From Promethearchaeota archaeon (GTDB taxonomy: Archaea; Asgardarchaeota; Lokiarchaeia; Sigyniarchaeales; SOKP01), in assembly GCA_048938855.1 (NCBI GenBank), contig JBHLLT010000010.1, positions 32,001 to 96,000 on the forward strand: DNA of 64,000 bases, read 5' to 3'. Under the pieces are notes generated by a model. That model saw only the letters and a list, made by a program, of their open reading frames with translations. It made no database searches and had not been told where the DNA came from. Positions 6,781 to 60,632 of this stretch are shown piece after piece; within the stretch, counting starts at the first letter, position 1; the number at the start of each line of letters is the position of its first letter. A program made the position numbers and the translations under genes.

Positions 6781-8892
6781 TTAATTAATTTTTCTATAAT
6801 CAAACTCCCAAGTCTTTTTGACATAGAGTGAATCATTTATTGTATCATAGATAATTGCTCTTTCACTTAATCCCCCAATATCTTCAGCTTCTACTTCAAT
6901 TTGATGTTTATTTAATTGATCTTTAACAGCATCAATATTTTCTTGATATGTCATATCATAATCTAAAAATAATTTTGCTCCTCCAATAACTAATGCTCTA
7001 ATATTTGAATTTTTTCCTCCATGAAATATGATATTATTATACAAGTCTTTAACTCCTGTATCAATAAATGTATGAGGGAAAAGGAAGTGATAACCTTGTT
7101 TTGAAGCTGATGAAGAAGGTAACGACATATTGGATATAGCAAAAATGTTATTCACAGGATCCTTAAGTATTATACAAATTCCTGATCCTAAACCTTTTAT
7201 GACAAATTTTGTTGCAAGGTCATTTTTATCAAATGAATTGATTAATCCATAGTATCCCATGGGAATATTTAGTTCCCTTTTATCGTTTGGTTTATCTATA
7301 CGATCCATACGTTTTTCATCAAAAATATTGAAACTTTCTTCTGTTTCATTGCCATCTTTTGAAAATTCTTTCATTTGAACTTCATTTATCAAAAATTGTC
7401 GAGTATAATCTCCAGCTTTTATTATTCGGTGTTCAAATTGTTTTTCCTTTTGTTCTATTAATCTCTCTCTTTGATCTACTCGTTTTGTGAGCCGTTCTAA
7501 AATTTCTATGCGATCTTTAACTTCTTCTTCTTTCTCTTTAAGTTCTTTAATCAAATCATTTAATTTCTTTCTCTTTCTTTCAATTTTATTATATTTTTCA
7601 TCAATATATGTAATTCTCTCTTCGATTGCTTTTTCACGTTGCTCTAAAAGCAACTCACGTTGCCGTAACTTTTTGTCCCATTGTTTTAATGAAGATATTT
7701 TTGATTCGTTTTTATTATCATTCATTGATTCTTTTAATTGATTTTTATGATGTTTAAAACCATATCGATTTATTCCGTTATTAATGTCGATGCTAGTAAT
7801 CTTTACTTCTGTTTCTATATTCTCAAGTTTATTCAAATCATTGATATTTATTTCAGGTTTAGAAGTGTTTTTCTTAATTTTTATTTTAGTGTCATTTGAT
7901 ATACTATTAGATTTTGCTTTTATTTTTGGTTGATTATATTTACTATTAACAACTTCACTTATTCTACACATTGACTTTGTTTTAATTGGCTTAATAATCT
8001 CAATTTCAGAATATTTATAGTTTTTAAATAGATTAGAAATTTCATTTTTGAAATTAGCAGTGTGAGAAGAAAAGTTTTTTATATAAAAACGATCTCGCAT
8101 ATTAATTGACTTAAAATTAGTAATTTTAAGAGGAAGGGTCTCAGAGCCTCCTAATATTAGTAAACCTCCATCATAAAGCCGTGATTCTATCGTTTGTAAA
8201 AGTTTTTCTCTTGCAAATTGATTTATATAAATAAAAAAATTCCTGCAAAAGATAATATCATATTTTCCTTTTTTTTGATGTCCCTTTGTAATGTCTTCCT
8301 GAATAAATTCAACCTTACTTTTAATATCTTCTGAAAGATTAAACCTTGGACCAAAATCAGTGTCTTCTTTTGAAAAATAAGCTTTTAAATATATGTCTGG
8401 AGTTTCATGTACTGGATAATCTCCATAAACACCTTCTTTTGCAATTTTAAGAGCTGCTGGATCAATATCTGATGCTATTATTTCAAAGTCAGGGAAATTT
8501 TTATCAGCCTTCTTCAATCGGTCCAAGATCATTGCAATAGAATAGGGTTCATCTCCAGTAGCACATGGTGCTGACCATATTCGAATAATCCTATTTGAGT
8601 ATTTAACATAGGATTTGATAAAATTCTCAAAATTTTTGAAAGCCTTATAATTTCTGAAGAAGTAAGTATAGTTAATAGTGAATTTATCCAAAAAAAGGTC
8701 AATTTCAATAGGATTTTCACGAATATATTTTATATAATCTTGATAGTAATTTAGATTTAAGTTTTTCATCCTAAAATCGATACGTTTTTCAAGAAATTTT
8801 CTCTGATAATGTTCAAATTTCATTCCTGTTACAGTTCTTAACTCCTCTATAAGAGCATCTATGGATGAAGGATTAATTGATGATACGGAAAT
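6781..8892 (-). CDS. CheR-type methyltransferase – coiled coil – CheD-like fusion protein; probable ATT start at 8892 (first ATG at 8823)
   Basis: CheR motifs TINYTYFFR, RIWSAPCATGDEPYSIA, DID, DIIFCRN; C-terminal CheD-like LGSG/DP/LP/GGAK/EDIGG; upstream in-frame extension IDALIEELRTVTGM resembles the CheR N-terminal helix. Confidence 0.88.
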   Translation of the reverse strand: MSVSSINPSSIDALIEELRTVTGMKFEHYQRKFLEKRIDFRMKNLNLNYYQDYIKYIRENPIEIDLFLDKFTINYTYFFRNYKAFKNFENFIKSYVKYSNRIIRIWSAPCATGDEPYSIAMILDRLKKADKNFPDFEIIASDIDPAALKIAKEGVYGDYPVHETPDIYLKAYFSKEDTDFGPRFNLSEDIKSKVEFIQEDITKGHQKKGKYDIIFCRNFFIYINQFAREKLLQTIESRLYDGGLLILGGSETLPLKITNFKSINMRDRFYIKNFSSHTANFKNEISNLFKNYKYSEIEIIKPIKTKSMCRISEVVNSKYNQPKIKAKSNSISNDTKIKIKKNTSKPEININDLNKLENIETEVKITSIDINNGINRYGFKHHKNQLKESMNDNKNESKISSLKQWDKKLRQRELLLEQREKAIEERITYIDEKYNKIERKRKKLNDLIKELKEKEEEVKDRIEILERLTKRVDQRERLIEQKEKQFEHRIIKAGDYTRQFLINEVQMKEFSKDGNETEESFNIFDEKRMDRIDKPNDKRELNIPMGYYGLINSFDKNDLATKFVIKGLGSGICIILKDPVNNIFAISNMSLPSSSASKQGYHFLFPHTFIDTGVKDLYNNIIFHGGKNSNIRALVIGGAKLFLDYDMTYQENIDAVKDQLNKHQIEVEAEDIGGLSERAIIYDTINDSLYVKKTWEFDYRKIN

Positions 8893-9074
8893 TTTTTACA
8901 CCAAAACGCCTGCTATTAAGATTTTTTACTCTATTACCATAAAAATGTAATATTATTAATATTTTAGGGAAGAGAAATTTGTGATTGAGGGCGTAACAAA
9001 ACAGAACAACAGATTTTGTGGTAAAAAAATTTTAAGTATTAATTTTTTGAATCGTTGTAATAAAATCATAAAGA

Positions 9075-23960: not shown

Positions 23961-24090
23961 TGGCCCGGGGGGGATTTGAACCCTCGATATCTGGCTCCGT
24001 TAGCCCAGAAATAATAATTTATTGCTGTCAAGCCAGCGCCGTAGATAAAAGCCCTGGGGGCTAATTCTATCCATACTAGACTACCGGGCC
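23961..24090 (-). tRNA. tRNA-Arg(GCG) with two introns at non-canonical positions 22/23 (24041-24066) and 34/35 (24000-24028)
   Basis: Acceptor stem GGCCCGG/CCGGGCC, T-arm GAGGG-TTCAAAT-CCCCC, anticodon stem CTGGC/GCCAG; removing two BHB-bounded inserts gives loop TT-GCG-GA. Confidence 0.85.
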
Positions 24091-60219: not shown

Positions 60220-60504
60220 TTAGCTAGGGTAATCATTTTTAGAACCCATAAGCGTGGTGGTTTCTTCGATCCATTGAGATAAGTCTTTATCAACTCTACA
60301 AAATGTGACAATTTTATCTATATCTCTTAATTTAGAAAAGGAACACTCTACAATTACATCCCAACCACCATATATTGGTGTAGCATAAGTAATTTTCCAA
60401 TCTTCATCTGGTTCTGTTGATTTTAAATTAGTCAATTTCTCAACAACCCTCCATTCTGTCCCAATTGCTTTTAGCCGTATTAAGATATAACCCCTATAAT
60501 AAAT
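60220..60504 (-). CDS. Stand-alone Lrp/AsnC ligand-binding (RAM)-like protein; probable ATT start at 60504
   Basis: Extension IYYRGYILIRLKAIGTEWRVVEKL supplies the first strand and helix of the fold; YGGWDVIV and ETTT motifs. Confidence 0.78.
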   Translation of the reverse strand: MYYRGYILIRLKAIGTEWRVVEKLTNLKSTEPDEDWKITYATPIYGGWDVIVECSFSKLRDIDKIVTFCRVDKDLSQWIEETTTLMGSKNDYPS

Positions 60505-60632
60505 TTCTTACACCTGTAGCTTCAAAATTATTCAAATTATTATTTTTTCTAATAATTATAACCTTACTTTAAATTGGAATATATTTAAGTACTTCAATGT
60601 TTCTAATATAAATTGTTTTAATTAAAATTTAT

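Follow-up and report, generated by a model that had tools for sequence, protein, structure and literature searches.

The 64,000-nt stretch of DNA analysed here (the window) is part of a 3.95-Mb, 30% G+C metagenome-assembled genome (MAG) of a Promethearchaeota archaeon, for which a contamination of 7% is estimated. The minus strand of the window carries a gene that very probably encodes a 94-residue stand-alone RAM module, the translation of which starts at AUU (60504-60502). No usable canonical start is available to this gene; the ATT codon, a Shine-Dalgarno (SD) motif and the spacing between them are conserved among relatives, and the fold requires the 22 codons behind ATT. The RAM gene exemplifies a habit seen throughout the genome, ATT, ATA or ATC being found at the SD-optimal position before dozens of ordinary genes. 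A non-AUG start had been proposed in a preliminary description of the locus, and this proposal is borne out by the comparison of codon 1 among relatives, by GGTG at a fixed spacing, by a ratio of nonsynonymous to synonymous substitution rates (dN/dS) of 0.026 behind ATT, and by contigs from other samples for which no change in ATT is listed.

Read 5′ to 3′, the minus strand carries C-AGGTG-TAA-GAA-ATT-TAT-TAT-AGG-GGT-TAT-ATC, and the layout from AGGTG to AGG is as previously described, although the strand had been left unstated. The 3′ end of 16S rRNA in this genome is ...GGATCACCTCC, so that the ribosome-binding motif is expected to be a piece of AGGAGGTGATCC, to which AGGTG is a 5-nt match. 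Two distinct 16S 3′ ends occur in the genome (G000:C18 and G000:C40), ...GCGGCCGGATCACCTCCT and ...GCGGCTGGATCACCTCCT, with differing flanks; they represent either two rRNA operons or part of the estimated contamination. An upstream canonical start is excluded by the in-frame TAA in the spacer (TAA or TAG is present there in 13 of the 20 orthologue loci, L001-L020). Between this TAA (60510-60508) and codon 24 there is no ATG, GTG or TTG, in agreement with the preliminary description, and the only canonical start codons in the 94-codon frame opened by ATT are codon 24 (TTG) and codon 86. The 23-codon extension ahead of codon 24, which reads I-YYRGYILIRLKAIGTEWRVVEK, had likewise been given correctly. 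The window contains two copies of the exact string GGTGTAANAAATT, at 8890-8902 and 60502-60514 and each on the minus strand, whereas 0.04 occurrences are expected from shuffled sequences; the SD-to-ATT spacing is therefore identical at the two sites, as had been stated. The other site ('case 1') precedes a 703-residue CheR-CheD fusion (CheR_N, CheR and CheD), with ATT at 8892 behind GGTG-TAAAAA; in the protein read from ATT, CheR_N is matched from residue 12 onward, whereas the first ATG corresponds to residue 24. By rough arithmetic the chance of 23 open codons in 30% G+C DNA is about 0.15, which is not rare; it is conservation, and not the open frame, that lends weight to an ATT start.

Conservation of the start was investigated in gene copies gathered from 24 species-level genomes of the genus and seven genomes of other genera of the order. 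All 47 genus copies, together with 285 database homologues whose names include Promethearchaeota, Lokiarchaeum and Thorarchaeota MAGs, span the coding sequence end to end. Codon 1 in the genus copies is ATT (30), ATC (12), ATG (4) or TTG (1), and never ATA; the start-codon comparison that had been suggested as a check thus places ATT or ATC in 42 of the 47 copies and ATG or TTG at the very same codon in the other five. In a tree of the coding sequences the genus copies form three clades, comprising the orthologues of the window gene, a paralogue and a third small clade. The paralogue is also present in this genome (G000:C7:30330-30605), where 25 open codons free of canonical starts precede an ATC at codon 1 and where, as in the window gene, codon 24 is the earliest canonical one. 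A GGTG 6-8 nt ahead of codon 1 is shared by 41 of the 42 ATT/ATC copies, its distance being 6 nt among the orthologues and 8 nt among the paralogues; the exception has GGAG. None of the five ATG/TTG copies has GGTG at that spacing. These five (L015, L017, L018, L021 and L022) all fall within one clade, in which start-codon strength and SD presence seem, from the sequences, to trade off. L019, of the same clade, carries ATT with GGTGA at 8 nt.

Outside the genus, the eight homologues from other genera have an ATG start 2-5 codons before the conserved YRGY motif and no GGTG. Many database homologues open exactly with M-YYRGYILIRLK, that is, with M at the codon-1 position, and more distant family members have M plus 0-12 residues ahead of YRGY. 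The choice among isoleucine codons at codon 1 is also skewed: ATA accounts for 0 of 42, as against 18% of internal Ile columns in the gene and 34% genome-wide, and ATC is enriched (29% versus 13-14%), although this is only a hint because the copies are related. Contigs from runs of three studies cover ATT, and no change is listed at 60502-60504; the comparison involves contigs only, has 32 further differences unlisted and includes one run that is possibly the source sample, so that its support is modest.

The region between ATT and codon 24 evolves as coding sequence under strong purifying selection. Among the 20 orthologues the pairwise dN/dS was 0.026 for codons 2-23 and 0.049 for codons 24-90, compared with 1.09 for a control consisting of the 22 triplets upstream of ATT, and in the paralogue clade the corresponding values were 0.043 (codons 2-23) and 0.107 (codons 24-90). 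Residues 2-12 (YYRGYILIRLK) are invariant in the 20 orthologues while the synonymous sites of their codons vary, Arg4, for example, being encoded by CGA, AGG, AGA, CGC or CGT. A start at the internal Ile codons 7 or 9 was also considered and ruled out, as no SD precedes them and the upstream YYRGY is invariant.

The fold of the ATT-started protein was predicted with AlphaFold2 from an alignment of 25 homologues, giving a model with a mean predicted local distance difference test score of 88.3. Its elements follow the order strand 3-11, helix 17-24, strand 37-44, strand 49-56, helix 61-71 and strand 79-87, a predicted beta-alpha-beta-beta-alpha-beta fold of which the first strand and first helix are supplied by the extension. 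The best Foldseek matches were stand-alone RAM modules (2cvi and 2e1a), followed by Lrp/AsnC proteins, and VIA-align returned Z scores of 11.3 for 2djw, 11.2 for 2cvi and 11.1 for 2e1a, with root-mean-square deviations (rmsd) of 1.8-2.3 Å over 74-80 residues. Since other ferredoxin-like folds (EF-1beta, ACT) reach Z 9-10 against the model, the margin favouring RAM modules is modest. The alignment pairs model residues 2-93 with residues 1-80 of solved stand-alone RAM modules, so that the N-terminus defined by ATT coincides with theirs. At the level of structure, this supports the earlier suggestion that the extension forms the first strand and helix of the domain and that the fold is incomplete without it.

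Assignment to a sequence family was less direct. The preliminary description had called the gene Lrp/AsnC-like and had proposed that a hidden Markov model of the AsnC ligand-binding domain be aligned to the extended protein. In scans of the 94-residue protein, AsnC_trans_reg (PF01037) was not matched at E ≤ 1 and NCBIfam gave no match; PF01037 did match 12 of 18 aligned sequences (the query and 17 more distant relatives) at E ≤ 0.1, the best at 2.5e-5. Support for homology to RAM/AsnC at the sequence level is consequently only transitive, because the profile matches relatives and not the query itself. A profile of the family matched DM1 marginally (E 0.017), and an ESM Atlas feature search, with all scores below 0.9, returned clusters that are partly PF01037 and serve as a lead only. 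A helix-turn-helix domain was not found in the 94-residue protein, the predicted RAM fold filling all residues; two codons ahead of ATT the frame is already closed, and solved Lrp/AsnC chains align to the model only from about residue 57-85 onward. A full Lrp/AsnC regulator is therefore not encoded: the model supports a divergent stand-alone RAM module, that is, the Lrp/AsnC ligand-binding fold without the DNA-binding domain.

Four solved stand-alone RAM modules, Pyrococcus horikoshii PHS023 (2cvi), FFRP-DM1 (2e1a), Thermus thermophilus TTHA0845 (2djw) and Sulfolobus tokodaii STS042 (2zbc), resemble the modelled protein most closely. They are 75-83 residues long, share its beta-alpha-beta-beta-alpha-beta fold and have no DNA-binding domain; they align to the model with Z 10.2-11.3, rmsd 1.8-2.3 Å over 74-80 residues and 18-31% identity, model residue 2 or 3 corresponding to chain residue 1 or 2. 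In the present family, by contrast, the loop that follows helix 1 is longer, at about 10 residues. The C-terminal ligand-binding fold of full-length Lrp/AsnC (FFRP) regulators is the same (Z 9-10 for 1ri7, 2cyy, 2cg4 and 2gqq), but the modelled protein is without their N-terminal helix-turn-helix and alone would be unable to bind DNA in their manner. In some distant relatives (P0121, P0139 and P0143; 182-198 residues) two such RAM modules are fused in tandem.

The extent of SD-led non-AUG initiation was estimated by a genome-wide census of codons that lie no more than 15 codons behind an in-frame stop and are followed by at least 80 open codons, and for which there is no canonical start either earlier in the frame or among the 10 codons that come after. 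When codon identity was tabulated against the distance from an upstream GGTG, candidates at 7 nt comprised 23 ATT, 14 ATA, 3 ATC, 19 ATG, 13 TTG and 2 GTG, compared with 1 AAT, 1 TAT, 1 TTT and 2 AAA among control codons, and outside the 5-8-nt band ATT dropped to 0-5 per position; the peak of ATT and ATA at the SD spacing is nearly as strong as that of ATG. Accepting any SD 5-mer at a spacing equivalent to 5-9 nt gave 59 ATT, 28 ATA, 9 ATC, 184 ATG, 58 TTG and 14 GTG, over a background of about 10-18 per AT-rich codon. The net number of ATT/ATA/ATC starts is very roughly 60-70, corresponding to about a fifth of the genes with such a strong SD and to about 2% of the whole gene set; as genes with a nearby canonical codon were left out, the estimate is a lower bound.

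The census also bears on the spacer stop. GGTG-TAA-NAA-ATT had been described as a layout shared by the two cases, and it is indeed present at both window sites, but TAA is not a general part of the arrangement genome-wide. At 6 nt, where 23 ATT codons were counted without the filter against canonical starts and 7 with it, the SD contributes an in-frame GTG, and the filter therefore demands a stop in the spacer. The TAA, which had been considered as a functional part of the layout, thus largely makes these cases visible to a reader and is not a requirement.

Ten candidates were scanned with Pfam: an SDR protein, ribosomal protein uS10, a universal stress protein, a cytidylyltransferase-like protein, a BcrAD/BadFG ATPase, a receiver domain, a hexapeptide protein, an aminotransferase, a pterin-4a-carbinolamine dehydratase and a glyoxalase. 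For nine of the ten, the Pfam domain is matched from profile position 1-3 onward, and the match starts ahead of the first canonical codon, which in these nine lies 19-71 codons downstream of the candidate start. The hexapeptide protein is a weak case, in which only a marginal match (E 3e-4) extends as far as residue 34, two residues above the first canonical start at residue 37. The uS10 gene (G000:C70:173540-173845, minus strand) has an ATA start 8 nt behind GGTGA and its first canonical codon 49 codons downstream, and positions 1-98 of the Ribosomal_S10 profile match residues 5-99. The only SUI1/aIF1 gene of the genome (G000:C31:6347-6667, plus strand) has no ATG, GTG or TTG until near the C-terminus; ATT is found three codons into its open frame, behind GTGAT. 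ARAGORN identified only 24 tRNAs in the genome, including one tRNA-Met(CAU) with an intron, a set too incomplete to address a special initiator tRNA.

Several points weigh against initiation at AUU in the RAM gene. The argument for it is drawn from comparison and from a predicted structure, and the first amino acid may be Met or Ile. As the five ATG/TTG copies share one clade, no more than one or two evolutionary events underlie the link between SD and start-codon type. Among the RNA runs searched none was listed with the locus, a result that says nothing on expression. Finally, in several species of the orthologue clade a short upstream open reading frame (ORF) ends 3 nt before ATT, making reinitiation possible. 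The mini-ORF (60525-60508 in the window) would then be translated up to its TAA, with a restart 3 nt further on at AUU. Such a frame of 3-5 codons (M-K/E/Q-L-K/Q-V-stop), opened by ATG or TTG and ended by the spacer stop (TAA or TAG), occurs in about 8 of the loci L001-L020 and also in L054, and the closeness of its stop to ATT suits this explanation. In other loci, however, its first codon is ATA, ATT, GTA or TAT, and the mini-ORF is not preceded by a separate SD; the paralogue clade does without it and nevertheless retains ATT/ATC with the SD at 8 nt. In most ATT/ATA candidates genome-wide, moreover, the SD lies 7 nt away and out of frame, an arrangement for which no mini-ORF is needed. Termination-reinitiation is accordingly judged improbable as an account of the RAM gene.

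Gene finders instead call a 71-residue protein from the TTG at 60435, which would turn the upstream frame into an untranslated leader. TTG is an accepted start codon, and the ESM Atlas holds the protein in the 71-residue form, from residue 24 read as M. Codon 24, however, is TTG in only two of the 20 orthologues, being TTA in 15 and CTA in three, and so cannot be a conserved start; no SD precedes it, the 22 codons upstream are under the purifying selection described above, and homologues with ATG begin at codon 1, not at codon 24. According to the model, the 71-residue product would also be without strand 1 and helix 1. A start at this TTG is very improbable. That ATT is a sequencing or assembly error for ATG, or marks a decaying gene that has lost its start, might be suspected of a MAG with some contamination, but the likelihood is negligible given ATT or ATC in 42 copies from 24 species-level genomes, no change in ATT listed in contigs from other samples, and an intact frame with a dN/dS of 0.03-0.05, selection that a pseudogene would not show.

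If AUU is the start codon, AGGUG 6 nt upstream would pair with the 3′ end of 16S rRNA and place AUU in the P site, where initiator Met-tRNA would read it in spite of a mismatch at position 3 of the codon; Met is accordingly the expected first residue of the protein. The translation yield would be expected to lie below that of AUG, as with bacterial AUU and AUA starts, and the level of aIF1, itself without a canonical start, may modulate such starts by analogy with bacterial infC. AUU/AUC/AUA initiation might even constitute a selected, lineage-wide layer of translational control in the genus rather than an accident that is tolerated; at least some 2% of genes would then pair a strong SD with a deliberately weak start, and their yield would depend on the level of the fidelity factor aIF1. 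This proposal fits the avoidance of ATG where an SD is present, the absence of ATA at codon 1 in all 42 copies, and the retention of the arrangement in two paralogues across the whole genus; we regard it as tentative, and slightly more apt to be wrong than right.

AUU starts are found in infC and pcnB of Escherichia coli, and NCBI table 11 permits ATT, ATC and ATA as starts. In Staphylococcus aureus, infC (AUA), cvfC1 (AUU), ccpN and citZ (both AUA) start behind extended SD motifs, and its AUU and AUA starts gave about 10-30% of the AUG yield (PMC13009471). The RAM gene belongs to this known kind, SD-led AUU initiation: as in the bacterial cases, a near-cognate codon differing at the third position lies at an optimal distance behind a strong SD, and codon and SD are both conserved among related species. 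It differs in belonging to an archaeon with eukaryotic-type factors (aIF1, aIF1A and aIF2), and in that dozens of genes, rather than three or four, are involved, these being known here from sequence. The same 6-nt spacing occurs in GGUG-AUUUAA-AUG, from the natural strong-SD aEF1A mRNA of Pyrococcus abyssi used in initiation studies (PMC6237735). In Asgard archaea the nearest precedent is AtubA, a tubulin gene of a Kariarchaeaceae genome, for which a 'rare ATT start codon' has been proposed; the deposited AtubA protein is without its first beta strand, and an upstream ATT, plausibly spaced from a ribosome-binding site, restores it (PMC13394414). Unlike the present case, that proposal is a methods remark on a single gene from another Asgard lineage, without comparative or genome-wide analysis (PMC13394414). 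A literature search for frequent ATT/ATA starts in Asgard archaea, with most subscription journals outside its coverage, found this single remark only.

New in the present work are the conservation of the arrangement in two paralogues across the genus, the occurrence of ATG at the same codon in an SD-less clade, and a structural alignment that fixes the N-terminus. Public gene calls of this protein are cut short, the ESM Atlas having only the 71-residue form, and some database homologues are likewise cut to 84 or 87 residues by calls that begin at an internal position; because strand and helix are lost, the fold is not recognisable in the short calls. The same truncation affects dozens of genes in this genome, including those for uS10 and aIF1. 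Asgard proteomes are heavily used for inferring the origins of eukaryotes, and where N-termini are systematically missing, domain annotation, structure prediction and construct design are distorted, a problem that the AtubA case illustrates (PMC13394414). If our interpretation is true, the combination of frequent third-position near-cognate starts with eukaryote-type factors would open start-codon stringency to experimental testing in those archaea that are most closely related to eukaryotes.

Table 1. Features of the RAM-module locus and of the second site with the same layout (positions in the window).
Feature	Positions	Strand	Basis or remark
Full coding sequence of the stand-alone RAM-module protein (94 residues + stop)	60220-60504	-	Translation from ATT; stop at 60222-60220
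ATT, proposed initiation codon (codon 1)	60502-60504	-	Codon-1 comparison in 47 genus copies; M-YYRGYILIRLK homologues
AGGTG Shine-Dalgarno motif	60511-60515	-	6 nt before ATT; complementary to the 16S 3′ end of the genome
In-frame TAA within the spacer	60508-60510	-	Closes the frame of the GTG lying in the SD
GAA spacer codon	60505-60507	-	Between TAA and ATT
Codons 2-23 (YYRGYILIRLKAIGTEWRVVEK), predicted strand 1 and helix 1	60436-60501	-	dN/dS; AlphaFold2 model
TTG, codon 24, first canonical start codon, used by public gene calls	60433-60435	-	TTG in 2/20 orthologues
Possible 5-codon mini-ORF TTG AAG CTA CAG GTG TAA	60508-60525	-	Overlaps the SD; ends 3 nt before ATT
Conserved intergenic block with two TATA-like elements	60562-60614	.	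Near-identity in about 16/20 species
FAD-oxidase gene, divergent neighbour	60633-62165	+	
'Case 1', GGTG-TAA-AAA-ATT before the CheR-CheD fusion gene	8890-8902 (gene 6781-8892)	-	Pattern search, sequence, Pfam

The surroundings of the RAM gene are conserved as well. A divergent gene for a flavin adenine dinucleotide (FAD)-binding oxidase and a gene for a CCG/Fe-S protein adjoin it in 17 of 20 loci, and a Rce1-like CAAX protease is encoded downstream in all 20; this is conservation of gene order only and does not imply a functional link to the RAM gene. The intergenic block of 53 nt (minus strand: AATTTATA(A/T)TAGAAACATT..TACTTAAATATATTCCAATTTAAAGTAAGG) is kept almost identical although the synonymous sites of the flanking genes are saturated (dS > 1), and its two TATA-like elements point in opposite directions. 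From these features the block is probably a divergent promoter pair for the RAM and FAD-oxidase genes, and possibly includes an operator.

Two further observations were made elsewhere in the window. A tRNA match spans 130 nt at 23961-24090 (minus strand), implying a long intron; long tRNA introns are common in Asgard archaea. An open-ended ORF at 63523-63999 (plus strand) matches small GTPases of the Gtr1/RagA family, a eukaryote-like signature protein.
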